Positions 2,778 through 58,855 are shown, counted from the first letter of the stretch. The stretch is 64,000 bases of DNA from Deltaproteobacteria bacterium (GCA_016234935.1 JACRNL010000004.1:87922-151921); one strand, 5' to 3'. Program-made: numbers and translations. The notes: generated by a model from the letters alone, not told the origin.

Positions 2778-3212
2778 CTACGGCCGCCCTTCGCCATCCT
2801 GCTTCTTCCTTAATTCATTCAGCCTGTATTCCATGTCAATGACCTTCATGAGGAGCGGCGTTATCGGGAAGCTTTTGGTATTGTCTAAATTTTTGGTTAT
2901 CACGAGCTTTAGTTCGGCCACGTCCTTTGCAAGGGTCTCAAGTTCGCGGGTAAAGCCGCCCTTCCATATCTGGAGGTTTTCATTTTCCTTCTGCATTTCC
3001 ATGTACCGCTCGGTCAGCACGGTGAGGGTGCGGCTTTTGTCCAAGAGTTTATGCTCATAGTCCGTGACCATCGAAGCGCTGACGGCGCGCTCTATTTTGA
3101 GCTGCCTCGCAAGCTCGCCCATGTTCCTGTCATATTCGCTTTCCCGGACAAAACCAATGCAGCCGGAAATAAGCGCGGACGCGCAAACTAATAAAGTAAA
3201 CTGTTTAATCAT
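2778..3212 (-). CDS. coiled-coil lipoprotein, function unknown
   Basis: The internal ATG at 3210-3212 gives MIKQFTLLVCASALISGC (signal peptide plus lipobox). The longer track ORF (to 3338) starts on TTG inside repeat A1, so I trimmed it. Confidence 0.5.
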   Translation of the reverse strand: MIKQFTLLVCASALISGCIGFVRESEYDRNMGELARQLKIERAVSASMVTDYEHKLLDKSRTLTVLTERYMEMQKENENLQIWKGGFTRELETLAKDVAELKLVITKNLDNTKSFPITPLLMKVIDMEYRLNELRKKQDGEGRP

Positions 3213-3325
3213 ACCGGCATACGTTTTTTTACTTAGCAGGTTGCTAAAGAACTCCAAATTCACAACAGACACTACCATGCGGCAAGGAGCGCGAAATATC
3301 TGTTTCTTTGAGCGGCCTGCCAAGG

Positions 3326-3450
3326 GCAGGCCGCTCAAAAAGCCCCAGCTACTAGGCGACGAGGAGCAAGGAGCGAGGCGTAGTGTGTCCTACGCCGCAG
3401 TGACGAGCGACGAAGGCAACGACGTAGCTGGGGCTTTTTCAGCGGCCTGC
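3326..3450 (+). repeat. family A palindromic element, copy A1
   Basis: GCAGGCCGCTCAAAAAGCCCCAGCTAC ... GTAGCTGGGGCTTTTTCAGCGGCCTGC forms a 27-nt arm pair with one mismatch. Central hairpin GGCGTAG/CTACGCC. It contains the stop codon of 3439..4263. An extra arm remnant lies at 3311-3322. Confidence 0.85.
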
Positions 3451-4263
3451 TAAGGATTCGTCTATCCATTCCAGATATTCCTCAAGCCCTGCCTCTATGG
3501 GCACGGCGATTACCTCCGGGACCTCGTAGCCGTGAAGCTCCTTTATCCTTTTTTTAAGCCTTTCAAAATGAGAGCGCCGGGTCTTGAAGATGCAAAGGCA
3601 TTCCGGCTCTTTGCAGAGCTTACCCTTCCAGACGTAGATGGACTTCATGATTGGAACGATATTGCAGCACGCGGCAAGGCGCTCGGTGACGGCCTTTTCC
3701 CCGATGCGTTCCGCGTCCTGGGCGTTAGCCGTCGTCACGAAAACCATGACATAGCCTGCAGCTGCCTTGTCCATGCCGCCTCCCCTGCCCGAAAAGATGT
3801 CCGACAGCGTCTTTATCATGCCCTCCCTGTGCGTGCCTGCCCAGTAGATGCGCCCGCAGGAGGGACATTTTGAAAATTCCTTTTGCGTCTCGTATACGTA
3901 GGCCGGGACGCCGCCCCTTATCAAATCCCTTTCTATCTTCCGAAGAACGGTGTTGCACCTCAGGCAGCGCGTAAGGGCGCGGCTCGCGTCCAATTCAAAT
4001 CTTTTGTCAACCTGCCTGAGCTGTTCATTGATATCGCCGGACTCGACAAAAAAAGAACGTCCAACGGCGGCCCTTCGTTTTACAAGGAGCGTGTCCCGCG
4101 TGAGGATTACGCGCCCCTGTCTGACCGCCTCCTCGACAAGCTCCCTGTCGCTTATCCGCCGGCTGTAAGCGGCGTCATAGCCAAGCGTTCTAAGCCAGCG
4201 GGCGAGCTTGCCGAGCATGGCGTCGGCATAGAACTTCGGGCGCGCGCCTTCTTCCTTGTTCAT
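3439..4263 (-). CDS. Mut7-C (DUF82) RNase-like domain fused to a CutA1 divalent-cation tolerance domain
   Basis: N-terminal ~165 aa: FYADAMLGKLARWLRTLGYD plus zinc ribbon CLRCN..CPSCG (Mut7-C type). C-terminal ~105 aa: VMVFVTTANAQDAERIGEKAVTERLAACCNIVP..YVWKG (CutA1 type). No stop codon between the two parts. Confidence 0.6.
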   Translation of the reverse strand: MNKEEGARPKFYADAMLGKLARWLRTLGYDAAYSRRISDRELVEEAVRQGRVILTRDTLLVKRRAAVGRSFFVESGDINEQLRQVDKRFELDASRALTRCLRCNTVLRKIERDLIRGGVPAYVYETQKEFSKCPSCGRIYWAGTHREGMIKTLSDIFSGRGGGMDKAAAGYVMVFVTTANAQDAERIGEKAVTERLAACCNIVPIMKSIYVWKGKLCKEPECLCIFKTRRSHFERLKKRIKELHGYEVPEVIAVPIEAGLEEYLEWIDESLAGR

Positions 4264-5856: not shown

Positions 5857-5978
5857 CAGGCTGCTCAAAAAGCCCCAGATGCAAGGCGTCGAGGAGCGAG
5901 GAATGAGGCGTGGCCGTACCACGCCGCAGTGACGAACGACGAAGACAACGCCGCAGATGGGGTTTTTTCAGCAGCCTG
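5857..5978 (+). repeat. family A element, copy A2
   Basis: CAGGCTGCTCAAAAAGCCCC ... GGGGTTTTTTCAGCAGCCTG. Central hairpin GGCGTGG/CCACGCC. It ends 1 nt before the TGA of 5979..7418. Confidence 0.85.
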
Positions 5979-7418
5979 TCAGGCCAGCGGCAGGCGCACT
6001 ATGAAGGTCGTGCCCATGCCCGGCTCGCTTTGGGCCTCGATGGCGCCCTTGAGGGACTCGGCTATCTCCCTGCAGATACTCAGGCCCAGGCCCGCGCCTC
6101 CGGCGGCCATGCCTTCGCCGAGGGCCTCCCGTGAGCGCGCCTTATCCACCCTGTAAAACCTGTCGAAAATATACGGCAGGTCTTCCTTCGATATGCCTAT
6201 GCCCGTATCCCTGACCTTGATGACGGCGGCGTTATCTTCCGCTTCAACGGACAGTTCCACCGTTCCGCCCTGCGGCGTGTACTTCAGGGCGTTATCAATG
6301 AGGTTAAACAGCATCTGGCTTATCCTCACCGGATCGCCGAACACTGCCACGGGGTCATTCCTAAGTATTGCCATATTCACCCCCCTGTCAAGGGCGAAAC
6401 GCCTGAAATGGTCAACGCGCTCTGTGAGCGCCCTGTCAAGGGCGACCTCCTGCATTGACGCGGCATCCTTCATGCCGGTCTTTTCAACGTCTATGCGGGC
6501 AAGGTCGAGGAGGTTTCTGACGATGTAGCTCATCCTGTCGATCTCCTCAAGGGAGCTTTTGAGCGCATCCCTCATGGCCTCCGGGTCGTTTTTAATTCGC
6601 AGCGCTATCTCCATCTCGCCCTTCAGGATGGTAAGCGGGGTCTTAAGTTCATGCGAGGCGTCGGCGGTGAACTGCTTTATCTGCAGGAATGATTTTTCAA
6701 GTCTCGCTATCATCTCGTTCATGGTGGCGGCAAGCCGGCCTATCTCGTCGTTCTTTACAACGACGTTTATCCTCTCGTTGAGGTTTTCAGCGCCTATCCT
6801 TTGCGCGGCGGCTCGAAGGTCCTGAACCGGCTTAAGGGCCTTTCGCGCAAGGACCCACCCGCCGGCGGCGGCGATAATGACCGACCCGGCCAGGCCGAAG
6901 CCGAAGATGTAGAAAAGGGAGCTGAGCACCTCCTCCATGCTTTGCAGGGACGCGCCCACCTGCACGATGGCCACCACGCCTTTGTGCTTTAGGCTTATCG
7001 GCTTTGTGACTAACCTCACGGGGTATCTGCCGAAGTTGCGGTAGACCTCGAAGGTGGTCACGCCGTTAAGGGCGTGCTCATATGTGTCCTGCGACAGCGG
7101 AAGGTAGGCGGATTCAAGGTTTGACGAGCGGGCCGCGACGTTGCCGTCCATGTCAAGCACCTGCACGAAGTTGCCGGCGATGCGTATGCCGAAGAACCTC
7201 TCAAGTATGATGTCGAAGTCCCCCGGCAGAAGGAGTTTGCCCGAAGGCTGGACTACGGTGTGCGCCATCATGCCGGCTACCGAGCCTATCTGCTCGTCCA
7301 CGCGGTCAATGAATATCCTTGAAAGCGTATAGGAGAAGACCGCGCCAAAGGCAAGCAGGCTCGCCGTTAAGAGCGTTACATACCAGAAGGTAAGTTTAGT
7401 GCGGATGGAAAATGCCAT
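5979..7418 (-). CDS. membrane sensor histidine kinase with HAMP domain
   Basis: Two transmembrane segments and a HAMP domain. H-box SHELKTPL, N-box NLIDNALKYT, DTGIGI, GAGLGLSI. Confidence 0.85.
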   Translation of the reverse strand: MAFSIRTKLTFWYVTLLTASLLAFGAVFSYTLSRIFIDRVDEQIGSVAGMMAHTVVQPSGKLLLPGDFDIILERFFGIRIAGNFVQVLDMDGNVAARSSNLESAYLPLSQDTYEHALNGVTTFEVYRNFGRYPVRLVTKPISLKHKGVVAIVQVGASLQSMEEVLSSLFYIFGFGLAGSVIIAAAGGWVLARKALKPVQDLRAAAQRIGAENLNERINVVVKNDEIGRLAATMNEMIARLEKSFLQIKQFTADASHELKTPLTILKGEMEIALRIKNDPEAMRDALKSSLEEIDRMSYIVRNLLDLARIDVEKTGMKDAASMQEVALDRALTERVDHFRRFALDRGVNMAILRNDPVAVFGDPVRISQMLFNLIDNALKYTPQGGTVELSVEAEDNAAVIKVRDTGIGISKEDLPYIFDRFYRVDKARSREALGEGMAAGGAGLGLSICREIAESLKGAIEAQSEPGMGTTFIVRLPLA

Positions 7419-8137: not shown

Positions 8138-8213
8138 ATTAAAGTTCCGGTTGCCGCACCTGCGGTGAACAAAGCTAAATGGTTGTATTTTGACTTTGGC
8201 CGTGCGCAGCGCC
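8138..8213 (-). repeat. family E element, copy E1
   Basis: The reverse complement reads GGCGCTGCGCACGGCCAAAGTCAAAATACAACCATTTAGCTTTG..CGCAGGTGC..AACTTTAAT. It lies between the stop of 8213..9865 and the crp-like start. Confidence 0.8.
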
Positions 8214-9865
8214 TAATCAAGCCTGGCGACGGCGCCTGCCCCCCGCTTAAAACGTGCGCGGGCAGGCCCGCCAGACTCCCCAAGCTCATAAAACGGGAAA
8301 TCCCTGCGGTACGGCACCACCGCGAGGGATATGCCCTTTAGCCCCTTTACGGCGCGTATCAATTCGGCGACCTCGCCGTTTGACAGGGGCTGTCCCGTCT
8401 CCCAGTCAACGGTCTGGAATTTTATAAGCACCTTCCCCGCGTCTCCGGCCGTGCGCGAGGCGTCCGCGGCTATCTTTTCGATAAGCGCCTTCACCTCCGC
8501 AGGGTTTTTGCTTAGTTCCGACGCCATCTGTCTGTGGTAGGCCATGATGGAGTAATAGTCAAACCCCTCCTTCACGGCCGCGCCAAGGCTCTGCGAGAGC
8601 CACGCAAGGGAATTCGCCGGATTTGAAACGCTCTCATACATGAGGTTGATGGCAAACTTCGCCTCCGGCCTTTTCTTTTTTACCGCGGCGCGGGCCGTAT
8701 TCGCCACATGAAGCAGGCGCCTGTTCTTCCACGCGGCCCACTTCCAGAAAAGCGGGGTATACTGCACCGCGTCTGTGTCTGCGGAGCGCAGATACATGGC
8801 CTCAGGCCTTAATCCCTCTCCGGTCTCTTTCCTGAAAAGGGCTGCGGCGTATTTGCCGAAACCCTCGTTGTGTCTGAGCACAAGGTCGTCCTGAAAAAGA
8901 ACGCCGTCAATTTCATACTCCGCGAGGTCAGAGTATATCCCGTCTATGCGCCGCGCGGCGGCGTCGTTAAACAGGTCAAGCCCCTTGCACCTCGTAAGCC
9001 CGCCGCCACCCATGCCAATGTCGTACCCTTTGCACTGAAGCTCTTCCCTGCCTTCGATGCCGTAATCCGCGTAGCGCGTCGTCATCCACGCGAATATCTT
9101 CAGGCCGTTCCTGTGCGCCGCCTCTGCCACGCCCGAAAGAATATCCGCGACCACGGGCGCGCGCAAGGTATTAAAATAAACGCCGGACCTTTTATCCGCA
9201 GGCGGCGCCACGCCGCGGTGGAACCTGTCCCCCTCGTTGTGGAAGACCCTGAAGATGACGGTATTCACCCCGGCCTGCTTAAGCCGCCTCATCTCGCCTG
9301 AGACATCTTCAATGCCCTTCCCGCCAAAAAGCATGACCTGCACGGCGCGAAGGCTTTCAGTTGAAGGCGGAAGGGCAGGCTCCGGCTCAAGCATTACCAC
9401 AGGAAGACCGGCCTTACGCCTGCCCTCGAATGCTTTTATCGGAGGGCGGATACGCATGGCCTCGTTAACGCGCTCTACTGCCCGCGCCTGTAAAAGCGGC
9501 TCACGGGCGCCGAAGTTAGATATGAAAAATCTGAAGTTCCTCTCGGCGTCCCGTATATGCCCGGCCTTGAAAAGGGCCTCGGCCATGTTGAACTGCGCCT
9601 TTGGCAGAAGGGGGCTTGCCGGAAACTCCTCAATGAGCCTTTGAAACTCCCTTGCCGCGCCCCGCAGGTCTCCATCGCTTAAAAGGAACACGCCGTAGCT
9701 CAGCTGCGCGCCGTCGTTAAGATACGGCTCCTGTACTCCCGCGCGCGCAGCGCCTTGAAAGGAAACGGAAATACCGAGAACAAAAAACAAGAAACAGACC
9801 GCATAAAGCCCTTTTTTAAACCAGCGGCAGGTCTTCAATATCGTCACCGGTAAACGGCCATTCAC
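8213..9865 (-). CDS. exported TPR protein with PgaB-C-terminal-like (GHL13) glycoside-hydrolase-like domain
   Basis: N-terminal signal or anchor, then TPR-like repeats, then GVNTVIFRVFHNEGD..VYFNT..NGLKIFAWM, which resembles the PgaB C-terminal domain. The last ~18 codons read through repeat C1. Confidence 0.5.
   Translation of the reverse strand: MNGRLPVTILKTCRWFKKGLYAVCFLFFVLGISVSFQGAARAGVQEPYLNDGAQLSYGVFLLSDGDLRGAAREFQRLIEEFPASPLLPKAQFNMAEALFKAGHIRDAERNFRFFISNFGAREPLLQARAVERVNEAMRIRPPIKAFEGRRKAGLPVVMLEPEPALPPSTESLRAVQVMLFGGKGIEDVSGEMRRLKQAGVNTVIFRVFHNEGDRFHRGVAPPADKRSGVYFNTLRAPVVADILSGVAEAAHRNGLKIFAWMTTRYADYGIEGREELQCKGYDIGMGGGGLTRCKGLDLFNDAAARRIDGIYSDLAEYEIDGVLFQDDLVLRHNEGFGKYAAALFRKETGEGLRPEAMYLRSADTDAVQYTPLFWKWAAWKNRRLLHVANTARAAVKKKRPEAKFAINLMYESVSNPANSLAWLSQSLGAAVKEGFDYYSIMAYHRQMASELSKNPAEVKALIEKIAADASRTAGDAGKVLIKFQTVDWETGQPLSNGEVAELIRAVKGLKGISLAVVPYRRDFPFYELGESGGPARARFKRGAGAVARLD
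8234..8267 (-). repeat. family C palindromic unit, copy C1
   Basis: GCCTGCCCCCCGCTTAAAACGTGCGCGGGCAGGC, in the inverted orientation of the C core. It lies inside the 3' end of ORF 8213..9865. Confidence 0.7.
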
Positions 9866-9965: not shown

Positions 9966-10055
9966 ATTAAAGTTTTTTGGCCGCCTGCGGCGTGGCAAAG
10001 CTAATGGATTGTATTTTGACTTTAGCCGTGCGCAGCGCCTTTTTTTCAAAAAAGG
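9966..10055 (-). repeat. family E element, copy E2, with terminal A/T hairpin
   Basis: ATTAAAGTT..CGCCTGCGG..CAAAGCTAATGGATTGTATTTTGACTTTAGCCGTGCGCAGCGCC plus the hairpin CCTTTTTTTCAAAAAAGG, which contains the radA stop codon. Confidence 0.8.
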
Positions 10056-11407
10056 TAAGCCATCGCCTCTTTAATCGTGGTCACGCCTATTATCTCGATG
10101 CCGCCTTTCACCTTGAGGCCCTTTAGATTGTCTTTCGGCATTATGCACCTTTTGAAGCCGAGCTTGGCGGCCTCCTTCACGCGCGGCTCCGCCTGATTTA
10201 CGCCCCTCACCTCTCCGGCAAGGCCGACCTCGCCGAAGATGACCGTCTTCGGGTCAACCGCTTTATCAAGGAAGTTCGACGCAAGGCTTGAGACAACGCC
10301 CAGATCCACGGCAGGCTCGTCAAGGCGTATGCCGCCGGCCACCTTTATGAAGATGTCGTGGTTGGCAAGGGTAATGCCCGCCTTTTTCTCGAGCACCGCA
10401 GCGAGGAGCATAACGCGGTTATAGTCCACGCCGACGACCGTCCTTCTGGGTATGCCGAAAATCGTCCGGCATACGAGAGACTGGACTTCAACGAGCACCG
10501 TCCTCGTGCCCTCAAGGCTCGACGTCACGGCGGAGCCGGAGGCGTCAACCGGCCGTGCGGCAAGGAATATCTCGGAAGGGTTCAGCACCTCGGCAAGGCC
10601 GCTCTCCTTCATCTCGAAGATGCCTATCTCCATGGCCGAGCCGAAGCGGTTTTTAACGGCGCGAAGTATCCTGAACTGGTGGCCCCGTTCGCCCTCGAAA
10701 TAAAGGACCGTGTCAACCATGTGCTCAAGGGCCTTTGGGCCGGCGATGTTGCCGTCCTTCGTGACGTGCCCCACGAGAAAGACAGGCACGTCCGTCTTTT
10801 TCGCGTATGTGATGAGGCTCGCGGCGACCTCCTTCACCTGGCTGAGGCTTCCCGGCGACGATTCGAAGGCCGCGCTGGCAAGCGTTTGCACGGAATCTAT
10901 GACAAGGACGCCGGGCTTTGTTTTCTTGAGCGCGTCGTGCGTCTTTTCAAGCGAAGTTTCCGCCAGGACAAGCAGGTTTTCGCTGAGCGCGCCGAGCCTC
11001 TCGCCGCGGAGCCTTATCTGCCGGAGCGACTCCTCGCCTGAGACGTAAAGCACCTTGTGGCCGCCGGCCGCCAGTGAGCCCATCGCCTGAAGGAGCAGCG
11101 TGGACTTGCCTATGCCCGGGTCGCCGCCGATAAGAACCGTTGACCCCGGCACCATGCCGCCGCCCAGAACGCGGTCGAACTCGCCGATATTCGTGCGCAC
11201 CCTGTCCTCTTCGGCCATGTCAAGGGTGGAGATGGCCTGGGGGAGGGCGTCCGTTTGCAGGGTATGCGGGCCTCCTTTTTCCTTGCGGTCAAAGACCCTT
11301 TCTTCCAGAAAGGAGTTCCATGAGCCGCAGTCCGGACACCTGCCGAGCCACCTGTAAGAGGCGTGTCCGCACGACTGGCACGTATAGATGGTCTTTTGCT
11401 TTGCCAT
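10046..11407 (-). CDS. radA: DNA repair protein RadA/Sms
   Basis: Zinc ribbon CQSCGH..CPDCGSW, Walker A GDPGIGKST, KNRFG motif, Lon-protease-like C-terminus. Start set at the ATG at 11405-11407 (MAKQKTIYTC). The track extension reads into the C2 repeats. Confidence 0.9.
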   Translation of the reverse strand: MAKQKTIYTCQSCGHASYRWLGRCPDCGSWNSFLEERVFDRKEKGGPHTLQTDALPQAISTLDMAEEDRVRTNIGEFDRVLGGGMVPGSTVLIGGDPGIGKSTLLLQAMGSLAAGGHKVLYVSGEESLRQIRLRGERLGALSENLLVLAETSLEKTHDALKKTKPGVLVIDSVQTLASAAFESSPGSLSQVKEVAASLITYAKKTDVPVFLVGHVTKDGNIAGPKALEHMVDTVLYFEGERGHQFRILRAVKNRFGSAMEIGIFEMKESGLAEVLNPSEIFLAARPVDASGSAVTSSLEGTRTVLVEVQSLVCRTIFGIPRRTVVGVDYNRVMLLAAVLEKKAGITLANHDIFIKVAGGIRLDEPAVDLGVVSSLASNFLDKAVDPKTVIFGEVGLAGEVRGVNQAEPRVKEAAKLGFKRCIMPKDNLKGLKVKGGIEIIGVTTIKEAMAYLF

Positions 11408-11419
11408 TGGTGTATTTAT

Positions 11420-11503
11420 GCCTGCCCCCGCGTGTCTGAAGCGGGGGCCTGCGCCCCCACGCGCCCCCCGCTTAAAACATGCTGGGACAAGCTGAAGCGG
11501 GGT
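11420..11503. repeat. cluster of family C units (C2)
   Basis: GCCTGCCCCCGCGTGTCTGAAGCGGGGGC (11420-11448), inverted CCCCCCGCTTAAAACATGC (11464-11482), and partial GCTGAAGCGGGG (11491-11502). Confidence 0.7.
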
Positions 11504-14568: not shown

Positions 14569-14882
14569 CGGCCTGCCCAGCACCACCTGCCATCACAGAC
14601 GCATCATTTTTAATGCAAACAGCCGTGCAGGCAACCTGCGTTTGCCGATTATCCGTGAATACCGCAAGACCCATGATATTTCAGGTTGCAAACGGGTAAT
14701 GCTGACAGGGGGGGTAACGGCCCTAAGGGGAGAGATAAACGAACATTTCCCAAATCACTGGACACCAAAAGATATCTGCGGACACCCTATTGACAGGAAG
14801 AAAACCGCGAGAAAAGATAAAAACACCCTGAACAACCAAACCCGCTCGCGCCGGTTCTTTTACAGGCCGCGCGCGCGGCAGT

Positions 14883-15446: not shown

Positions 15447-15501
15447 ATACCCTTACCTATATCAAATTAGCGCGCCGGTTGCAAGTCAATCCGTAAACTT
15501 A

Positions 15502-15590
15502 CCTTTCTTGAAAGAAAGGCGCTGCGCACGGCTAAAGTCAAAATACAACCCTTTAGCTTTGCCCTTCGCAGGTGCCCGAAGAACTTTAAT
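15502..15590 (+). repeat. family E element, copy E3
   Basis: Hairpin CCTTTCTTGAAAGAAAGG, then GCGCTGCGCACGGCTAAAGTCAAAATACAACCCTTTAGCTTTGCCCTTCGCAGGTGC..GAACTTTAAT. Confidence 0.8.
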
Positions 15591-15596
15591 GTCTTT

Positions 15597-15622
15597 GCTG
15601 TCAGGAGTTAACTCCTGACAGC
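15597..15622. repeat. hairpin of the GCYGTCAGGAG family
   Basis: GCTGTCAGGAG-TTAA-CTCCTGACAGC. Related hairpins lie at 55233-55259 and 56455-56484. Confidence 0.7.
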
Positions 15623-15660
15623 ACAATAACTTCTAAATTCTATATTCTAACTCCTTTATG

Positions 15661-15848
15661 TGCGCCGCAATGACGAGCTACGAAAACAACGCGGTAGATG
15701 GGGCTTTTTCAGCAGCCTGACGGGCAGGCTGCTCAAAAAGCCCCAGCTACTAGGCGGCGAGGAGCGAAGAACGAGGCGTAGTGTGTCCTACGCCGCAGTG
15801 ATGAACGACGAAGGCAACGACGTAGATGGGGCTTTTTCAGCAGCCTGC
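15661..15848 (+). repeat. family A element, copy A3 (right half plus a full unit in tandem)
   Basis: The half unit (15661-15719) ends in GGGGCTTTTTCAGCAGCCTG. The full unit (15724-15848) runs GCAGGCTGCTCAAAAAGCCCC...GGGGCTTTTTCAGCAGCCTGC. Its last base is the first base of the CTA (TAG) stop of 15848..16642. Confidence 0.9.
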
Positions 15849-16642
15849 TAATTTATCTCTATCTGCGTCGGCAGCTTGACTATTATCTCCGCCCTATCGC
15901 CGTATTTCCTGACAACGCCCTTCACCGTAACCACCCTTCCCGTTAAATCCGCCGGATTCAGCCCTGCCAGCGAAAAGGCGTCAAAACTGCTTTTGAATAT
16001 CACCGCGGTAAAGCCGTCCCTCCGGTTGCCGAAGTTTATGTATATCGCCTTTTTAGCCCTGTGGACATATTTAACTCTGCCCTTTACGCTTACGGCCTCG
16101 CCGATGCGCCCGGCGGCGTCCTGCGCAGGTATTACCACCCCGCCGCCGCTTCCATTCCCGCCTTTTAATCCCCAGATGCCGCGGCGCTCCGCATGCGCCT
16201 CTTTTTCAATCTGCCTGAATTCCTTTTCCTTTTCAAGGCCGCAAGGAGGGATTATCATGAGCTTGCCGAGACCTTCCCTGAGCAGGGCCGAGTTTATTAG
16301 CAGCGACTCGCCGGTGTAGACCCATGCGAGCGTTCTTCCATATTTGTCCCTCGGCTCCTCGCCGCAAACAACGAGCCTTACCTTTTTGCCTTTAACAAGC
16401 CCTGAGTTTCTCCTTTTCGCCTCTTCATAGAACGGCTCGCCCTTTTCCGGACTGTCTATCCCCAGGTATCTGACCTTCTCGCCTCCCCTGAGCTTTATCG
16501 TGTCGCCGTCAACCGCGCTCCCGGCAACGGCGTATCTTTCGCGTCCGGAACCCTGCCCGATGCCCGCGCCTGCACGCGGCGCGTGCAGGGTCAATAACAG
16601 AAATAGCAGCGCAGCCAGGACGCATGGCCTCCGGCGCCTCAC
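15848..16642 (-). CDS. secreted thermonuclease (SNase) family nuclease with C-terminal OB-fold-like domain
   Basis: Signal peptide, then SNase motifs VDGDTIKL, VRYLGIDSPE and DKYGRTLAWV. The C-terminal ~90 aa look OB-fold-like. Confidence 0.7.
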   Translation of the reverse strand: MRRRRPCVLAALLFLLLTLHAPRAGAGIGQGSGRERYAVAGSAVDGDTIKLRGGEKVRYLGIDSPEKGEPFYEEAKRRNSGLVKGKKVRLVVCGEEPRDKYGRTLAWVYTGESLLINSALLREGLGKLMIIPPCGLEKEKEFRQIEKEAHAERRGIWGLKGGNGSGGGVVIPAQDAAGRIGEAVSVKGRVKYVHRAKKAIYINFGNRRDGFTAVIFKSSFDAFSLAGLNPADLTGRVVTVKGVVRKYGDRAEIIVKLPTQIEIN

Positions 16643-17267: not shown

Positions 17268-17346
17268 GCGAGCCCAGCACCACTTTCCGTCGCCAACATT
17301 TCTATCTGATATATATGCCGGTAACGGAAAGTGGTGCTGGGCTCGC
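17268..17346. repeat. family B inverted-repeat element, copy B1
   Basis: 23-nt perfect terminal inverted repeats GCGAGCCCAGCACCACTTTCCGT / ACGGAAAGTGGTGCTGGGCTCGC around a 33-nt A/T-rich core. Confidence 0.85.
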
Positions 17347-19277: not shown

Positions 19278-19375
19278 CCCCAGCACCACTTTCTGCTGCC
19301 AACGCCTGCCCTCGCATGTCTAAAGCGGGGGTTTGTATTATGCATGAACTCTTGGTGATGGAAAGTGGTGCTGGG
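19278..19375 (+). repeat. family B element, copy B2, carrying a family C unit
   Basis: Termini CCCAGCACCACTTTC / GAAAGTGGTGCTGGG. The interior equals the reverse complement of B3 plus a 27-nt insertion. Confidence 0.85.
19305..19331 (+). repeat. family C unit, copy C3 (nested in B2)
   Basis: CCTGCCCTCGCATGTCTAAAGCGGGGG lies between CCAACG and TTTGTATT, which are contiguous in copy B3. Confidence 0.8.
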
Positions 19376-22536: not shown

Positions 22537-22667
22537 CTGGCAGTCTCCTTAATTAAAAATCCCCCGTTGGCAGGCTTGAAACTATCGGGGGTAGCGGCAT
22601 TAAACGCCAATACTAATTTATAACAGAACCATGCGCATCTTTACAAGAAGGTTTTCCATCAGATTAT

Positions 22668-22718
22668 CGTTCCCACGCCTGCCCTCGCGTGTCTGAAGCG
22701 GGGGCAGGCGTGGGAACG
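22668..22718. repeat. family C unit with extended arms, copy C4
   Basis: CGTTCCCACGCCTGCCC-TCGCGTGTCTGAAGCG-GGGCAGGCGTGGGAACG, a 17-bp stem. It lies between atpD and purB. Confidence 0.8.
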
Positions 22719-24808: not shown

Positions 24809-24920
24809 GTCTTAGCCATATCTGTTTTTACTGTTCCCGTAGTGCAACACCCCCGCCTAAACACGCAAAGACAGATTTTAGTGTCGCCGCTTTGCTGCTT
24901 TTTTCAAGCGCCACCGAACA

Positions 24921-25068
24921 GCAGGCTGCTCAAAAAGCCCCGGCTACTAGGCGGCGAGGCGCGAGAAACGAAGGCGTAATGGTAATTACGCCGTAGTGCC
25001 GAGCAACGAAGACAACGACGTAGATGGGGCTTTTCGGGGCACCCATGCGGAGCATGGGTCGGTCTGCC
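24921..25068 (+). repeat. family A element, copy A4, with its right arm replaced by a minor (G) unit
   Basis: GCAGGCTGCTCAAAAAGCCCCGGCTAC.. Central hairpin GGCGTAAT/ATTACGCC. After ..GATGGGGCTTTTC comes GGGGCACCCATGCGGAGCATGGGTCGGTCTGCC (25036-25068), the reverse complement of a unit at 58653-58681. It lies between atpA and atpB. Confidence 0.8.
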
Positions 25069-25069
25069 T

Positions 25070-26827
25070 CTAAACCCCGAACTCGGCCTTTATGCCGTCA
25101 ATAAGCGCCCCGGCCTCTTTTACAAAGACCTCGTTAGGCCAATTCTTCATGTTGATGACGCGCACGCGCAGCGTTGACTCCAGTATTTTTTCAAGATATG
25201 TGCCTTTTTTAAGCGCGGCCTCTGCGCTGTCGAGGAACGCGAAGATGACCTTCATCATCCAGTACTGCTTTTCATGCGTATTAAAGGCGTCGGCCTCGTT
25301 AAAGATGCTCTGCTTCAGAAACGTTTCATTCGTTATGAAGGCCGCCTCAAGCACGAGCCTGTCCTTTTCCTGCAGGGCCTCGACGCCGATTATCTGGACG
25401 ACCTCTTTAAGTTCCGCGTCCTTCTGGAGGAGCTTTAAAAGCCGCGCGCGAAGCCTCGGCATATCCGGAGCGACCTCTCTTGAAAGCCAGCCGGCAAGGT
25501 CTTCGTAATAGAGGCTGAAAGAGGACTGCCAGTTGACAGCCGGAAAGTGGCGTCTGTGCGCCAGCTCCGGGTCAAGCGCCCAGAACGCGCCGGCAAAACT
25601 GAGCGACGCCTGCGTGACAGGCTCCGAGAAGTCGCCGCCCGGCGGCGACACTGCGCTTACAACTGTAATGGAGCCGGTGAGGCCGTCCTCGCCGAGGCAT
25701 TGGACTCGTCCGGCCCTTTCATAAAAACCGCCCAGATGCGTGGCGAGATACGGCGGAAAGCCTTCCTCACCCGGCATCTCCTCAAGACGCGAAGAAATCT
25801 CCCTGAGCGCCTCTGCCCAGCGCGAGATGGAGTCCGCGAGAAGCGCGACGTTATAGCCCATGTCCCGATAGTATTCAGCGATGGTTATGCCTGTAAAGAT
25901 AGACGCCTCTCTGGCGGCCACCGGCATATTCGACGTATTGACGACGATGACCGTCCTAAAGCTGAGCGGCAGGCCCGTGTCCATCTCTTTTAACTCCGGA
26001 AAGTCCGACAGTATCTCGGTCATCTCGTTCCCGCGCTCTCCGCAGCCGACGTAGATGACTATGTCGCTCTTGCTGAGCTTGGCTATCGTCTGCTCGACGA
26101 TCGTCTTTCCGGTTCCAAAGCCGCCCGGCACGATGGCCGTGCCGCCCTCGGCCACCGGAAACAGCGTGTCAAAGACCCTCTGCCCGGTCACGAACGGGAC
26201 CACCGGCGGCAATTTCGCCTTAAAAGGCCTCGGCCTTCTCACGGGCCACTCTTCGTAAAGACCTATTGTCCTGCCGTCTTCAAGAACACATACCGGCTCC
26301 GTGCCCGTGACGCCGCCGGTCTTGATTTCCGATATAACGCCGCCCCCGCCTCCACCATTTAAATCCGGCGGCATCATCACTCTGTGGACGATGCGCCCGT
26401 TTCCAGCCACCGTGCCGATAACCATGCCCGGCTCCGCGCGGTCTCCCCGCCTTTTCAGCGGACTGAACGACCATACCCTTTTCAGGTCAATCGGCGCGAT
26501 CTTCAACCCCTTTGCAATAAAGTCCGTGCCGGCCTCTTTCATCCTGTCAAGCGGCCTCTGAATGCCGTCGAACGTGCCGCCAAGCAGGCCCGGGCCGAGG
26601 ACGACCATCAGGGGCTTGCCGCTGCTTACGACGTCCTCGCCGGCGGAAAGGCCGCCCGTGTCCTCATAGACCTGCAAGGTGGCCAGCTCCCCTTGTATGC
26701 GGATGACCTCGCCAAGCAGACCTTCTTTGCCCACGAGACAGACCGTATGCATGGCAACGCCGTCAAGCCCCTTTGCCACAACCGTCGGCCCTGTCACGCC
26801 GTATATCGCGCCTTTAAGTTTTTTCAT
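25070..26827 (-). CDS. atpA: V/A-type ATP synthase catalytic subunit A
   Basis: P-loop GGFGTGKT, 585 aa, including the non-homologous insert region typical of A subunits. Confidence 0.9.
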   Translation of the reverse strand: MKKLKGAIYGVTGPTVVAKGLDGVAMHTVCLVGKEGLLGEVIRIQGELATLQVYEDTGGLSAGEDVVSSGKPLMVVLGPGLLGGTFDGIQRPLDRMKEAGTDFIAKGLKIAPIDLKRVWSFSPLKRRGDRAEPGMVIGTVAGNGRIVHRVMMPPDLNGGGGGGVISEIKTGGVTGTEPVCVLEDGRTIGLYEEWPVRRPRPFKAKLPPVVPFVTGQRVFDTLFPVAEGGTAIVPGGFGTGKTIVEQTIAKLSKSDIVIYVGCGERGNEMTEILSDFPELKEMDTGLPLSFRTVIVVNTSNMPVAAREASIFTGITIAEYYRDMGYNVALLADSISRWAEALREISSRLEEMPGEEGFPPYLATHLGGFYERAGRVQCLGEDGLTGSITVVSAVSPPGGDFSEPVTQASLSFAGAFWALDPELAHRRHFPAVNWQSSFSLYYEDLAGWLSREVAPDMPRLRARLLKLLQKDAELKEVVQIIGVEALQEKDRLVLEAAFITNETFLKQSIFNEADAFNTHEKQYWMMKVIFAFLDSAEAALKKGTYLEKILESTLRVRVINMKNWPNEVFVKEAGALIDGIKAEFGV

Positions 26828-31781: not shown

Positions 31782-31839
31782 GCGCCTGCGGCGGGCAAAG
31801 CTAAAGGTTTGTATTCAGGCTTTGGCAGCGCGCAGCGCC
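31782..31839 (-). repeat. family E element, copy E4 (diverged, no AACTTTAAT end)
   Basis: GCGCCTGCGGCGGGCAAAGCTAAAGGTTTGTATTCAGGCTTTGGCAGCGCGCAGCGCC. It contains the last seven codons and the stop of cimA. Confidence 0.7.
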
Positions 31840-33398
31840 TTCTTATCCTTGTAAAGTTTGTATTCAAGGCTGTCGGCAAGGGCCTGCCAGCTTGCCTCTA
31901 TGACGTTTTCAGACACGCCCACCGTGCCCCAGCGCTCTACGCCGTCGCCGGACTCCACAAGCACCCGCACCCTTGCGGCCGTGCCCTCCACGCCGCCAAG
32001 CACCCTGACCTTGAAGTCCAGTAGTTTCACCTCGCTGATGGACGGGTAAAATCTTTCAAGGGCTTTTCTAAGGGCCTTGTCGAGCGCGTTCACAGGGCCG
32101 TCGCCCTCGGCGGCGGTATGCTCGACCACGCCGCCGACCTCAAGCTTTATGGTCGCCTCCGCGAACGGGGCCTCGTCCTCTTTTTTCTTTTCGTCAATCA
32201 CGCGGAAACTCAGCAGACGGAAGTACCTTTCTCTTTTCTTCAGCGCCTTTTGCACGAGCAGCTCAAAGGACGCCTCCGCGCCTTCGTACTGGAAACCCTG
32301 ATGCTCAAGCGCCTTTATATCATGGAGGAGCTTTTGCACGACCTCGTCCTTGCTGGCAAGGTCAACGCCGAACTCGGCGGCCTTGTAGAGTATGTTCGAC
32401 CTGCCGGAAAGGTCAGACACCAATACCCTCTGGTGGTTGCCGACAAGCTCCGGCCTGATGTGCTCGTAGGTCTGCGGGCTTTTCAAGACCGCGCTTACGT
32501 GGATGCCGCCCTTATGCGCGAACGCGCTGTCGCCGACATAGGGCTGGCGCTTGAACTGCCGGACATTGGCAAGCTCGTAGACAAAGCGCGACGCCTCGCG
32601 GAGCTTTCTAAGACGCTCGTCCGTAATACAGTCAATTTTCATCTTCAGCTTCAACGCCGGAATTATCGAACATAGGTTGGCGTTCCCGCACCTTTCGCCA
32701 AAGCCGTTCATGGTGCCCTGCACCATGAACGCGCCCTCCTGGACCGCCGCGACAGTGTTGGCCACGGCCATATCCGAATCGTTATGCGCGTGAATGCCGA
32801 TGGCCGCCGGCGTCCGCATGCGCACCCTGCCGGTCATCCCGCCGACGTCTGACGGAAGCGACCCGCCGTTAGTGTCGCAAAGCACAACGCAGTCCGCGCC
32901 CGCGTCAATGGCCGCCCCAAGCGTCTTCATCGAATATTCAGGGTCGTCCTTGAAACCGTCGAAAAAATGCTCCGCGTCGAAAAAGACCTTATCAACCTTT
33001 GGCTTCAGGAACTTTATCGAGTCAAAGATCATCTCAAGGTTTTCCTTCAAAGGCACGCGAAGGGCCTTTTCCACATGGAGCTTCCATGTTTTGCCGACAA
33101 GCGTCACGCACGGCGCGCCGCTTGAAAGTAGCGCCTTTATGTTGGCGTCGTCCTTTGCCTTTACGCCTGAGCGCCGCGTTGAGCCGAAGGCCGCAAGCTT
33201 CGCGTTCTTCAGCTTACGCGAGCGCATGGCCTTAAAGAACTCTATATCGCGCGGGTTTGAACCCGGCCAGCCGCCCTCGATATAATGCATGCCGATGTCA
33301 TCAAGACAGTGCGCGATACGAATCTTATCCTCGACTGAAAAAGAAATCTCCTCAGCCTGCGCCCCGTCCCTCAATGTGGTGTCGTATAGTTTAAGCAT
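31815..33398 (-). CDS. cimA: (R)-citramalate synthase (2-isopropylmalate synthase family)
   Basis: [18 protein letters not shown], and a C-terminal LeuA-dimer regulatory domain. 527 aa with a Geobacter-type CimA-like N-terminus. CimA versus LeuA cannot be settled without an alignment. Confidence 0.7.
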
Positions 33399-35345: not shown

Positions 35346-35409
35346 TATCTGACCCTTTCAATGGGATAATCCAACAGGCTGCTGTAAAACCCTCGCGTAT
35401 CCCTCGAAA

Positions 35410-35535
35410 GCAGGCTGCTCAAAAAGCCCCAGCTACTAGGCGACGAGGAGCGAAGAATGTAGGCGTAATGCTAATTACGCCGTAATGATGAGCTTTGATG
35501 CCAACGACGTAGATGGGGCGCTTGAGGCAGCCTGC
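35410..35535 (+). repeat. family A element, copy A5
   Basis: GCAGGCTGCTCAAAAAGCCCCAGCTAC .. GGCGTAAT/ATTACGCC .. GTAGATGGGGCGCTTGAGGCAGCCTGC. Its last base begins the CTA (TAG) stop of lpdA. Confidence 0.85.
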
Positions 35536-36938
35536 TACGCCCGCTTCCTGCCTATCTTGTGTATAGCCATGCCGTGCGCGTCCTCGGCGGCTTCCATGAC
35601 AAGCTCGGGAAGCGTCGGGTGAGCGTGTATTGTCTCGGCGACGTCCTTTGCCTTTGCGCCGGCCCTTATCGCAAAGGCGGCCTCGCCGATAAGGTCTGTC
35701 GCGTGCGCGCCGACTATGGAACAGCCCAATATTTTATCGGTCCCCTTATCCGCGATAAGCTGGACAAAGCCGTCGGTCTCGTCCATGCCCAAGGCCTTTC
35801 CGCTTGCCGCGTAAGGAAACCTGCCGATTGTCACGGCGATGCCCTTTTCTTCTGCCTCTTTTTCACGAAGCCCTACGCTTGCTATCTCCGGATCTGTGAA
35901 GATTCCGGCGGGCACCGCGGAATAATCCATTTTGGCAACTTTACCGAGCGCGTTTGAAACCGCCACAATACCCTGCGTCGAGGCCACGTGCGCAAGGAGC
36001 ATCTTTCCGGTAACGTCGCCTATGGCGTAGACGCCCTTTACGTTCGTCTCCATTTTTTCGTTCACGCCGACGCGCCCTTTTTCAAGGTTCACACCGGCCT
36101 TTTCAAGGCCAAGCCCGGCGGAATTAAAGCTCCTGCCTATGGACACGAGCGCCTTGTCGGTTAAAAACGCCCTGCCGTCCTTCAGCGTAGTCTTAACGCC
36201 GCCCTCTGCAACCTCTACCCGCTCAACAGAGACTTCCGTAAGGACGTTCACGCCCGTCTCCTTGAACCTCTTCAGGATGACCCTTGAGACCATCTTGTCC
36301 TCTGTCGTCAGGATAGACGGCAGCATCTCGACTATCGTAACGCTCGCGCCGAAGGCGGAAAAGAGCGTGGCGAACTCGCATCCCATAACCCCGCCGCCGA
36401 TTATGAGCAGGCTCTTCGGGACTTCCTTTAAATTCAATGCCTCGGTTGACGTGATGACGTTCTTGCCGTCAATGCTGAAGGCCGGTATCAGGAGCGGCTC
36501 TGAGCCTGTGGCTATGATGACAGCCTTTTTTGCCGCAATGACATCAACCGCGCCGTCCTTCGCGACGCGGACAGTCGACGCCGATTCCAAAAAGCCGTCG
36601 CCCTTCAAGACCTCCACGCCGTTGCCCTTTAAGAGCTGTTCAACGCCGCTGACGAGCTTTTTCACAACGCCGTCTTTTCTCTCGACGGCCTTTGCCATGT
36701 CAAAGGAAATATTGCCGACGTTAACGCCGAACTCCGCCGCGCGCCTCGCGGCAAGGAGATTTTTAGCTGAATAATAGAGCGCCTTTGTCGGGATGCAGCC
36801 GCGGTTCAGGCAGGTCCCTCCTATCCTGTCCTTTTCAACAAGCGCGACCCCCGCGCCAAGCTGAGCCGCCCTTATGGCGGCAACGTATCCGCCAGGCCCG
36901 CCGCCGACTACTACGACATCGAACTCTCTCATCAGCAA
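35535..36938 (-). CDS. lpdA: dihydrolipoyl dehydrogenase
   Basis: GGGPGGY, redox-active CLNRGCIPTK, HAHPT near the C-terminus, 467 aa. Confidence 0.9.
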   Translation of the reverse strand: MLMREFDVVVVGGGPGGYVAAIRAAQLGAGVALVEKDRIGGTCLNRGCIPTKALYYSAKNLLAARRAAEFGVNVGNISFDMAKAVERKDGVVKKLVSGVEQLLKGNGVEVLKGDGFLESASTVRVAKDGAVDVIAAKKAVIIATGSEPLLIPAFSIDGKNVITSTEALNLKEVPKSLLIIGGGVMGCEFATLFSAFGASVTIVEMLPSILTTEDKMVSRVILKRFKETGVNVLTEVSVERVEVAEGGVKTTLKDGRAFLTDKALVSIGRSFNSAGLGLEKAGVNLEKGRVGVNEKMETNVKGVYAIGDVTGKMLLAHVASTQGIVAVSNALGKVAKMDYSAVPAGIFTDPEIASVGLREKEAEEKGIAVTIGRFPYAASGKALGMDETDGFVQLIADKGTDKILGCSIVGAHATDLIGEAAFAIRAGAKAKDVAETIHAHPTLPELVMEAAEDAHGMAIHKIGRKRA

Positions 36939-40704: not shown

Positions 40705-40799
40705 TGTCATTCCCGCGGGTTTAATCCGTCCCCGAATGCTTGTATCATGGATTAAAATATTCGGGGCCTGCCCTCGCAGGTCTAAAGCGGGGGACGACA
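40705..40799. repeat. composite palindromic element (TGTCATTCCCGC end, CCCCGAAT hairpin, family C core)
   Basis: TGTCATTCCCGC .. CCCCGAATGCTTGTATCATGGATTAAAATATTCGGGG .. CCTGCCCTCGCAGGTCTAAAGCGGGGGACGACA. Confidence 0.7.
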
Positions 40800-51475: not shown

Positions 51476-51553
51476 CCTGACACATATTGGATAGTGAATT
51501 TAACGTGGAAGAAAGACGAGAAAAATCAAGCTTTTGAAAAGAAAACAAATACG

Positions 51554-51678
51554 GCAGGCTGTTCAAAAAGCCACAGTTACAAGGCGGCAAGGCGCGAGGA
51601 ACGAGGCGTATTTTTGGATACCCCGCAGTGACGAGCAACGCGGACAACGCGGTAGATGGGGCTTTTTGAGCAGCCTGC
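51554..51678 (+). repeat. family A element, copy A6 (more diverged)
   Basis: GCAGGCTGTTCAAAAAGCCACAGTTAC ... GGTAGATGGGGCTTTTTGAGCAGCCTGC. It ends 2 nt before the TAG of era. Confidence 0.8.
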
Positions 51679-51680
51679 CC

Positions 51681-52580
51681 CTAATACCCGAACCCCTTCA
51701 TAACATCAGGCTTCTTGCCCCAGTCCTTTTCAACGCGCACGAAAAGCTCTAAAAAGACCTTTGTGCCGAGGAGCCTTTCGATGTCCTCTCTCGCGGCCGT
51801 GCCTATGCGCTTCAGCATGGCGCCGCCTTTGCCTATGATGATGCCTTTTTGGGAGTCGCGCTCCACGTGTATGGTCGCGCTTATGGAGATGAGGTTTTTC
51901 TTCTCCTTGAAGCTCTCCACCGCCACGGCGGCCGAGTACGGTATCTCGTCCTTAGTAAAAAGAAAAATCTTCTCCCGTATCATCTCGGCGGTGATGAAAC
52001 GCTCCGGCTGGTCGGTCATTATATCTTCGGGGAAGTACTTCGGCCCTTCGGGCAGGATGGCTTTTATGAGCTTCAGGAGAGTCTCTACGCCGTCTTTTTT
52101 GAGCGCGGAAATCGGGATAATATCCTTAAACGGAAAAAGCCCGGAACAGGTCTTTATAAGAGGCAGAATATCCTGCTTATTCACCGCGTCAACCTTGTTT
52201 ATGGCAAGGATGACCGGGTTTTTCAGCCTCTTGAAATTCTCGATTATCAAAAGGTCGTCTTCATTTATCTCTTTACCTGCTTCTATGAGGTATAAAACAG
52301 CGTCGGCGTTGTCAAGGGACGACATGGCCTCCCTTAACATGAACCTGGTCAAAAGCCCGCTGCCCTTGTGTATGCCCGGCGTGTCTATGAAGATTATCTG
52401 CGCGTCGTCAAAATTCGCAACGCCCCTTACGATATTCCTCGTGGTCTGCGGCTTTTGAGAGACAATAGATATCTTTTCGCCGATTACGGCGTTCAAAAGC
52501 GTGGATTTGCCCACATTCGGCCTGCCGATAATCGCGATAAAACCTGATTTAAACGGTTTTTCCTGTGTTTGCTCAGCCAA
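51681..52580 (-). CDS. era: GTPase Era
   Basis: GRPNVGKST, DTPG, NKVD and a C-terminal KH domain, 299 aa. Confidence 0.9.
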   Translation of the reverse strand: MAEQTQEKPFKSGFIAIIGRPNVGKSTLLNAVIGEKISIVSQKPQTTRNIVRGVANFDDAQIIFIDTPGIHKGSGLLTRFMLREAMSSLDNADAVLYLIEAGKEINEDDLLIIENFKRLKNPVILAINKVDAVNKQDILPLIKTCSGLFPFKDIIPISALKKDGVETLLKLIKAILPEGPKYFPEDIMTDQPERFITAEMIREKIFLFTKDEIPYSAAVAVESFKEKKNLISISATIHVERDSQKGIIIGKGGAMLKRIGTAAREDIERLLGTKVFLELFVRVEKDWGKKPDVMKGFGY

Positions 52581-52645
52581 TTTTCACCTCACACTGCACA
52601 ATAGCATCCCGAAAAAACAAAGTCCACCTGCCTTTTTTGAAACCT

Positions 52646-52733
52646 ACCTTTTTTGAAAAAAAGGTGCTGCGCACGGCTAAAGCCAAAATGCAACCCTTCA
52701 GCTTTGCCCACCGCAGGTGCCAAAAAACTTTAA
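52646..52733 (+). repeat. family E element, copy E5
   Basis: Hairpin ACCTTTTTTGAAAAAAAGGT, then GCTGCGCACGGCTAAAGCCAAAATGCAACCCTTCAGCTTTGCCCACCGCAGGTGC..AAACTTTAAT. Confidence 0.8.
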
Positions 52734-52767
52734 TTTTCCCTGCTGGAATCTGTATTGCTGACGGGAA

Positions 52768-58449: not shown

Positions 58450-58652
58450 GAATGCACCTGTTTTCGCGGGGAGAGCCTTGAGGGTTGCTAAGGTTCGGGG
58501 ATGATGGAGACTGCTCTGCCTACAATTATCCTCTGTTTTTCTGTTTTGTCAAGCAGACCGATAGAGGCAATAAAAAAGGCGGTCTTTGAGATACCGGCCG
58601 CCTTGAGACTTAAATACATTAAGAAGTTGCGGAAAAACTCAAAATCTGGTCA

Positions 58653-58681
58653 GGCCGACCCATCCGAAGGATGGGTGCCCC
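58653..58681. repeat. minor (G) palindromic unit
   Basis: GGCCGACCCATCCGAAGGATGGGTGCCCC. It matches the reverse complement of 25036-25068. Confidence 0.6.
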
Positions 58682-58717
58682 GAATCTTCCCATTGCAATA
58701 ATAAAGACGCAATGGGA

Positions 58718-58855
58718 ACCCAGCCAGATGCAAGGCGTCGAGCCCAGCACCACTTTCCATCGCCAAGAGTTCATGCATAATACAAACGTTGGCAGAGGAA
58801 AGTGGTGCTGGGGAGGAACGAGGACGCCGCAGATGGGGCTTTTTCAGCAGCCTGC
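58718..58855 (+). repeat. family A element, copy A7 (degraded, interrupted by B3)
   Basis: ..CCAGATGCAAGGCGTCGAG [B3] GAGGAACGAGGACGCCGCAGATGGGGCTTTTTCAGCAGCCTGC. The left arm is missing and there is an internal deletion. Confidence 0.75.
58743..58812 (-). repeat. family B element, copy B3 (nested in A7)
   Basis: CCCAGCACCACTTTCC ... GGAAAGTGGTGCTGGG (16-nt perfect terminal inverted repeats). The interior is the reverse complement of the B2 interior. Confidence 0.85.

Follow-up and report, generated by a model that had tools for sequence, protein, structure and literature searches.

A palindromic repeat docked on stop codons in a deltaproteobacterial genome is probably an IS5-type MITE

ERIC sequences (IRU) of enterobacteria and Correia/NEMIS elements of Neisseria are imperfect palindromes of 100-160 nt that lie in transcribed intergenic regions, carry internal insertions at fixed sites and form hairpins able to affect mRNA; Correia elements duplicate TA. 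No transposase is known for ERIC, and neither ERIC nor Correia elements are known outside a single bacterial family. REP/BIME sequences, which go together with RAYT, a Y1 (HUH) enzyme, are likewise intergenic palindromes near stop codons, but they measure 20-40 nt and show no target duplications. Insertion sequences of the IS5 family duplicate the target 5'-YTAR-3' (PMC5009759), and MITEPsy1 of P. syringae, a 100-nt IS5-type MITE with the terminal repeat ...TCTGAAAAAGCC, transposes actively and targets CTAG or YTAA with a duplication of 4 nt (PMC3189936).

Here we present a computational analysis of family A, an imperfect palindrome of ~125 nt that recurs in a window of 64 kb, the window being the whole stretch of deltaproteobacterial DNA that was analysed. 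Named homologues assign the organism to an uncultured Deltaproteobacteria/Thermodesulfobacteriota lineage; an exact look-up of window proteins had no record for two ORFs. Family A resembles MITEPsy1/ISPsy2 as a non-coding unit of the order of ~100 nt, in its repeat ends (...CTGAAAAAGCC), in the CTAG/YTAA target and in the 4-nt duplication (PMC3189936), and for MITEPsy1, too, an IS5-family transposase acting in trans is the presumed mobilising enzyme. MITEPsy1 differs in its length of 100 nt, its occurrence in few P. syringae pathovars and the lack of a reported 125-nt internal palindrome, whereas family A contains an internal inverted copy of one end that produces a long hairpin, holds nested modules and occurs in many phyla. 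With ISAzs10-like IS (NF033581, transpos_IS5_4) it shares the repeat type CAGGnnGCnGAAAAAG and the TTAG/CTAG duplication; these elements are autonomous, 1.3 kb long and equipped with a DDE transposase of about 360-373 aa, whereas family A encodes nothing, and an ISAzs10-like IS is the likely source of its transposase. Family A is like ERIC and Correia/NEMIS in size, palindromic form and setting, yet the sequences are unrelated, and it is set apart from REP by its DDE-type ends and 4-bp duplications. On sequence comparison, family A is probably a MITE, a non-coding derivative of an IS5-family IS in the group with ISAzs10 and ISPsy2, a reading to which we assign a rough probability of 0.86. The element is previously unnamed; the IS5-type MITE is a known kind of mobile DNA, here unusually widespread.

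Copies in the window were delimited by repeat finding and alignment, by a search with the terminal 21-mer at up to three mismatches (12 matches, against none in 100 shuffles of the 64-kb window) and by an HMM built from the copies, which returned six full-length units (the cores of copies 1 to 6 below), one 3' half and one composite, all on the + strand, and no others. The seven copies and the extra right half listed in the initial annotation were recovered by repeat finding and alignment and by the HMM alike. Altogether the eight copies and fragments, 62-232 nt in length, make up about 2% of the window; they are given here with the flanking ORFs, which are genuine genes.

Copy 1, 3237-3449, + strand: outer left inverted repeat 3237-3263 (CAGGTTGCTAAAGAACTCCAAATTCAC), 63 extra nt and core 3326-3449; flanks TTAG (3233-3236, left) and CTAA (3450-3453, right); Mut7-C/CutA1 gene (3439-4263, minus strand) with its TGA inside the right repeat.
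Copy 2, 5857-5978, + strand: core alone, outer left repeat not recognisable; histidine kinase gene (5979-7418, minus strand) with its TGA stop within the right flank TCAG (5979-5982).
Truncated copy, 15658-15719, + strand: core present as its 3' half only, right repeat included; copy 3 begins beyond a gap of 4 nt.
Copy 3, 15724-15847, + strand: palindromic core; SNase-domain gene (15848-16642, minus strand) with its TAG stop in the right flank CTAA (15848-15851).
Copy 4, 24861-25069, + strand: insertion of ~209 nt between the genes for V-type ATPase subunits A and B, core 24921-25043; adjoining gene V-type ATPase A.
Copy 5, 35375-35534, + strand: complete, about 160 nt, with outer left repeat 35375-35392 (CAGGCTGCTGTAAAACCC) and core 35410-35534; flanks CCAA and CTAC; dihydrolipoyl dehydrogenase gene (35535-36938, minus strand) with its TAG stop in the right flank.
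Copy 6, 51527-51677, + strand: core 51554-51677, preceded at 51527-51552 by a degenerate stretch whose similarity to the outer left repeat is not significant; era (51681-52580, minus strand) with its TAG stop 4 nt past the right end.
Copy 7 (composite), 58623-58854, + strand: outer left repeat 58623-58637 (GAAGTTGCGGAAAAA) and right repeat 58835-58854; nested hairpin modules 58655-58681 and 58688-58717 and an unrelated inverted-repeat element 58743-58812; flanks TTAA and CTAA; stop of a MiaB-like gene 22 nt away.

No ORF spans any of these elements, and the ORFs of the window stop at the element or just within it. The minus strand carries about 44 of the 50 long ORFs, and the GC skew stays negative over the whole window. 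The right repeat of copy 4 is degenerate and is interrupted by a nested 27-nt hairpin module (25036-25062).

Judged from better-preserved copies in other genomes, the intact element measures about 150-160 nt and is made up, in order, of an outer left repeat (CAGGYTGCTGAAAAAC...), a spacer of ~10 nt and the 125-nt imperfect palindrome. The right arm of the palindrome is the right inverted repeat (...GGGGCTTTTTCAGCAGCCTG), and the left arm, CAGGCTGCTCAAAAAG, repeats that right end internally in inverted form, with C instead of G at position 10. Duplications of 4 bp (YTAR) enclose the element as a whole. Among the matches listed, a YTAR-like tetramer precedes most of the 126 ends of the G form, CAGGCTGCTGAAAA (TTAG 18, CTAG 15, CTAA 10, GTAG 7, CTGA 6, TTAA 5), a set which takes in the right end of family A as seen from the opposite strand, along with the two ends of full IS copies, whereas the 78 listed ends of the C form, CAGGCTGCTCAAAA, to which the left end of the family A core belongs, show no YTAR-like flank. 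An outer G-form end with a YTAR flank is usually found 24-36 nt upstream of the C-form end (~27 nt in better-preserved copies), and farther away where nested modules are present; the left terminus of the core is therefore internal. Locus L058 displays the full layout, with CTAA followed by CAGGTTGTTGAAAAACCCTCGCGTCCGTT, then CAGGCTGTTCAAAAAG ... CAACAGCCTG and again CTAA, and the same arrangement of the outer repeat is seen at L031, L084, L086, L077, L074 and L020. The unit as originally drawn is incomplete, and its left "terminus" has to be moved outward, to 3237, 35375 and 58623 in copies 1, 5 and 7, the only window copies in which the outer left repeat is recognisable; elsewhere in the window it is absent or degenerate.

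Small hairpin modules are nested at fixed positions in family A, namely GGGGCACCC-N-GGGTCGG (~27 nt) and TCCCATTGC-N-GCAATGGGA (~30 nt). Those of the window (25036-25062, 58655-58681, 58688-58717) occur inside family A only; beyond the window, family A copies of groundwater Deltaproteobacteria MAGs contain such modules as well (L097, L075, L018, L050, L013 and others). Variable stems and very small secondary insertions are both candidate explanations for them.

The terminal 20-mer of family A, CAGGCTGCTGAAAAAGCCCC, is identical to one end of a full IS at each of two alphaproteobacterial loci, L019 and L014, and the opposite ends of these two IS match it over their outermost 13-15 nt. The L019 IS (5888-7160) runs from CTAG and CAGGCTGCTGAAAAAGCCCC through an ORF of 373 aa to TTTCAGCAGCCTG and CTAG; that of L014 (6124-7425) has the same ends, an ORF of 371 aa and the flanks CTAG and TTAG. 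At a third alphaproteobacterial locus, L076, a homologous transposase identified by tblastn only adjoins the same end. The L019 and L014 ORFs carry the Pfam domains DUF772 and DDE_Tnp_1 and reach 262-263 bits with NCBIfam NF033581 IS5_4 (IS5 family transposase), for which the cut-off is 140 bits. Their nearest named relative is ISAzs10, at 66% aa identity, the ends of which read TTAG, CAGGCCGCGGAAAAAGG ... CCTTTTTCCGCGTCCTG, TTAG. A cognate transposase of the IS5_4 type was found by tblastn nowhere in the 64-kb window, and among the matches listed it was seen at alphaproteobacterial loci only and at none in Deltaproteobacteria or Nitrospirota; a protein search with the transposase, seeking the parent IS in related lineages, yielded only unnamed close relatives.

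Other non-coding elements were encountered that have the same terminal repeat and a stop-like flank around unrelated interiors, at L029, L041, L060, L087 and L071 (Polyangiaceae MAG), L056 (Nitrospira), L067 (Bryobacteraceae) and L051 (Sandaracinus). Shared ends combined with unrelated interiors suggest that the same transposase family spawned several independent MITE lineages. At L019, two full IS copies in opposite orientation (3008-4126 and 5927-7048), with transposases that are 99.7% identical, stand ~1.8 kb apart in one alphaproteobacterial MAG and could be a composite transposon.

Target duplications were assessed in 26 copies with a detectable outer repeat. Identical 4-bp flanks are present in 7 of them, against 1.9 expected from shuffled pairing, and comprise CTAA four times, TTAA, TTAG and TTGG, the last being non-consensus. 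In the window, copies 1, 5 and 7 have no perfect duplication (TTAA/CTAA at copy 7; two of four positions matching at copies 1 and 5), and the sole matching flanks belong to copy 4, in which no outer left repeat can be recognised and which is bounded by the direct repeat CTAA(AC) at 24857-24862 and 25070-25075.

A related MAG offers the site of copy 4 in its unoccupied state. At locus L105, where the V-ATPase B subunit is 88% aa identical, 9 nt separate the stop of atpA from the ATG of atpB (1384-1396), whereas the V-type ATPase A and B genes of the window are 261 nt apart (24809-25069). The two loci are homologous on both sides, and the window holds ~209 extra nt (24861-25069) bounded by CTAA(AC); L105 is the empty site for copy 4. 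Some 50 nt downstream of copy 4 still resemble the repeat coding for the subunit A C-terminus in L105 (GGCGGGGGTTGCAC), a likeness from which it follows that subunit A had lost part of its tail no later than the insertion. In the lpdA-lysC spacer, two relatives (L102, L103) are without family A; the relative with a 94%-identical lpdA (L102) continues with unrelated sequence after the same TAG, and one with an 80% lpdA has a 94-nt spacer free of family A. The sequence after the lpdA stop of L102 (4090-4247) holds another widespread short repeat, ...GTCATTCTGAACGAAGTGAAGAATCTC..., which recurs in the unrelated MAG loci L047, L013, L006, L095, L021 and L001.

The initial annotation had placed each right end at the stop codon of a minus-strand gene, and this is borne out by the distances, which run from 0 to 22 nt or overlap. 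Measured from the ...CCTG end to the stop of the long minus-strand ORF, they are +1 for the copies at 5857, 15724 and 35410, +4 for that at 51554, +22 for copy 7 (58718), and +1 or +2 for that at 24921, depending on the placement of its degenerate right end. At the copy beginning at 3326 the stop is an internal TGA (-10): the flank of copy 1 offers a TAG in the wrong frame, and the gene reads on to the TGA of the element, so that copy 1 supplies the last three codons and the stop of the Mut7-C/CutA1 gene, whose C-terminus reads ...S-L-A-G-R-stop. The association extends to other genomes. In 65 copies from these (71 with six window copies), a long ORF that enters the right end stops at +1 in 20 (23 with the window) and at +2 to +8 in 12, and in 6 it ends with the TGA situated 10 nt within the repeat. 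Genes in other genomes end at the outer left repeat as well.

TAG and TAA dominate the flanks at the docking sites and TGA is rare; in the window at large, the stops of long ORFs are 20 TAG, 18 TGA and 12 TAA, TAG being already the commonest at 40%, so that an excess of TAG at docked stops would tell nothing. The commonness of TAG and TAA together with the rarity of TGA fits a DNA target (YTAR) better than stop-codon recognition. Selection acting on the stop codons themselves was rejected on the under-representation of TGA and on the existence of full-length IS copies with the same ends and flanks. We would rather attribute the docking to the choice of YTAR targets combined with selection against insertions in coding sequence. 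The tetramer CTAG occurs seven times in the 64 kb of the window, four of them inside family A copies (3352, 15750, 24947, 35436).

A scan with CAGGCYGCTSAAAAAGCCCC over one genome per species gave at least 100 loci, which among the matches listed belong to Deltaproteobacteria groundwater MAGs, Nitrospirota, NC10, Acidobacteriota, Firmicutes, Binatia, Omnitrophota, Rokubacteria, Polyangiaceae and Alpha- and Gammaproteobacteria; among the Firmicutes is a cultivable isolate, Sedimentibacter hydroxybenzoicus DSM 7310, which has the element at L095. The whole 125-nt unit is present at at least 60 loci in other genomes; at other loci the same 20-mer follows a stop-like tetramer and starts something else. 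The core itself was found in at least seven phylum-level groups, namely Deltaproteobacteria/Thermodesulfobacteriota, Nitrospirota, NC10, Acidobacteriota, Firmicutes, Omnitrophota and Rokubacteria.

The single orientation noted at the outset describes all window copies and is not general in the family, in which genes end on either side of the element elsewhere. A first small test hinted at a bias relative to genes outside the window, ORFs ending at 23 of 40 right ends and at 2 of 15 left ends; a fairer one, with 18 against 10 and both in 17, did not confirm it, 6 of the 18 being window copies. Orientation relative to GC skew showed a non-significant trend (34:18 overall; 21:11 at the 32 loci where |skew| > 0.03, binomial p = 0.11).

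Folding either strand of any copy gives one long hairpin with imperfect pairing (z = -3 to -8 relative to shuffles). The paired substitutions reported for its central part are present as described, with the window variants GGCGTAG/CTACGCC, GGCGTGG/CCACGCC and GGCGTAAT/ATTACGCC, and a cross-genome alignment of 35 copies in 15 sequence clusters supports them: 97% of stem cells pair and 9 of 26 pairs have changed on both sides, values reached by none of 500 shuffles. The interior also pairs in lineages outside the delta group, giving a rod-like hairpin, and its stem sequences differ between phyla, so that the interior stems co-vary. Conserved across phyla are the core motifs TGCAAGG, GCGTAC...GTACG and CAACG, far beyond what a transposase needs for binding the tips. 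GGGGC followed by TTTTT appears on both strands, the T-run itself being paired with the A-run in the ~100-nt hairpin. Correction of quasi-palindromes by template switching is an established mutational mechanism, and it could keep the arms complementary without selection or an RNA function.

The two strands of the stem are not equivalent. On the + strand of the element (E+), G.U wobbles outnumber A.C cells by 69:10, or 32:10 when counted by cluster and pair, an A.C cell on E+ corresponding to a would-be G.U on the other strand. In 41 of 53 copies E+ is the better-folding strand, with a mean difference of -4.9 kcal/mol (Wilcoxon p = 3e-5, the copies not being independent). For the flanking genes of the window E+ is the antisense strand, and the preference of the wobbles for this strand argues against a function on the mRNA strand.

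These observations have to be set against the readings that compete with an IS5-type MITE. A host-selected structured RNA at gene 3' ends, serving on the mRNA strand as mRNA stabiliser or intrinsic terminator, is the direction in which the initial annotation pointed; the long stable hairpin with z down to -8, the supported compensatory changes, the A-tract/GC-stem/T-tract geometry at both ends and small terminator-like matches inside the copies on the minus strand would all suit it. We regard it as very unlikely, as wobbles and fold energy favour the strand antisense to the flanking mRNAs, TGA is rare at the docking site relative to TAG and TAA, a terminator in copy 4 would be polar inside the V-ATPase operon, genes of other genomes end on either side of the element and no Rfam family matches; the IS5 ends, the YTAR duplications and the empty site speak against it too. 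The initial annotation had not placed the element in any named repeat or RNA family, in agreement with the Rfam check, which gave no match over the whole window at gathering thresholds and, in a permissive search of 15600-15900, chance miRNA-hairpin models only, with E values of 0.13 or higher. A full-text literature search with the terminal sequences produced chance matches only, and promoter and terminator scans of the element gave nothing decisive. The suggestion of a REP/BIME-type element moved by a RAYT (IS200/IS605-like Y1), or of a palindrome-associated element derived from IS200/IS605, would account for an intergenic palindrome just past stops and for uniform orientation in a window of uniform GC skew. 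It is rendered extremely improbable by a unit of 125-160 nt against 20-40 nt, by inverted-repeat ends identical to those of a DDE (IS5) element, by 4-bp target duplications, which Y1 transposases do not make, and by an orientation that is not tied to strand in other genomes.

The IS5-type MITE, in turn, is built on shared IS ends, target duplications, an empty site and a cross-genome association with stops, each of which was demonstrated in the sequences compared. Counting against it are the wobble asymmetry, which is not predicted for a purely selfish element of double-stranded DNA, the one orientation of 8 of 8 window copies where DDE insertion at near-palindromic targets should be orientation-neutral, the conserved interior, and a window with no transposase and weak ends. 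The MITE model alone accounts for neither the cross-phylum core nor the strand asymmetry of the wobbles. A MITE core with a strand-specific single-strand function on E+ would explain the conservation across phyla; it might block antisense or read-in transcription as a terminator or insulator working in one direction, act as a transposon-borne small RNA, or form an ssDNA structure that its own propagation requires. The wobble asymmetry and the energy difference favour E+, the asymmetry runs opposite to the replication- or transcription-linked deamination bias that GC skew would predict, and the core is conserved in seven phylum-level groups with interior stems that co-vary between them. Nevertheless we hold this reading to be decidedly unlikely: the promoter scan showed no promoter-like site in the element, whatever the sequence, its G-rich strand is generally the one that folds better, the independent wobble events number roughly 30 against 10 rather than hundreds, and template-switch correction could keep the pairing without selection. 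Should the core be a strand-specific structured nucleic acid (E+), spread over at least seven phylum-level groups by IS5-type transposition and kept for its function, which we think unlikely, it would constitute a mobile functional RNA or single-strand DNA module, for example one for one-directional termination or insulation at the gene 3' end or for its own propagation.

Three further candidates were discarded. The ends of family A resemble a Kingella-type DUS core, and a DNA uptake sequence was rejected on a k-mer census of the window, which finds the motif inside the element only. A one-sided IS200/IS605-like target was dropped in view of the outer left repeat and the duplications. The attC site of an integron lies 3' in a promoterless cassette and consists of an imperfect palindrome bounded by R''/R' core sites (RYYYAAC ... 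GTTRRRY); family A, with the ends CAGGCTGCT.../...AGCAGCCTG, has no GTTRRRY, and its flanking genes are housekeeping genes (V-ATPase, era, lpdA, miaB-like).

The window holds other repeats. A second inverted-repeat element of 69-97 nt with the ends CCCAGCACCACTTTCC ... GGAAAGTGGTGCTGGG occurs in three copies (17273-17341, 19279-19375 and 58743-58812, one of them nested in copy 7), with a weak match at 14576. A third repeat, with the core GCCTGCCCTCGCRTGTCTRAAGCGGGGG, is found at 11400-11447, 19284-19331, 22657-22704 and 40746-40793, one copy being nested in the inverted-repeat element at 19279-19375. A fourth, of ~106 nt (GGCAAAGCTAA...TTGACTTTAGCCGTGCGCAGCGCC), lies at 15495-15600 and 52640-52745, with 82% identity between these two copies, and in reverse-complement partial copies at 8168-8221, 9994-10047 and 31794-31847; two of its copies are within about 1 kb of family A copies.

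Taking family A as an IS5-type MITE, the following course of events can be proposed. A cognate DDE transposase acting in trans would insert the element at 5'-YTAR-3' and duplicate the 4 bp, a target that holds TAG or TAA on one or other strand. On insertion at a stop codon the duplicated target would regenerate the stop and leave the gene intact, whereas insertions within genes would be lost, such that the survivors accumulate exactly on stops. An element that had inserted among the final codons of a gene would end the protein with a TGA of its own, located 10 nt within the repeat. Most window copies may be old and immobile, seeing that their outer left repeats have decayed.

For annotation, it matters that family A supplies or abuts the stops of seven genes and rewrites one C-terminus (Mut7-C/CutA1), that a tightly coupled V-ATPase A/B pair is split by 261 nt and that gene callers yield spurious ORFs over the element; its recognition as an IS5-type MITE guards against misreading the copies as regulatory RNAs. 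For the biology of such elements, the case illustrates that a preference for YTAR targets, once joined by purifying selection, can look like a functional link to stop codons.
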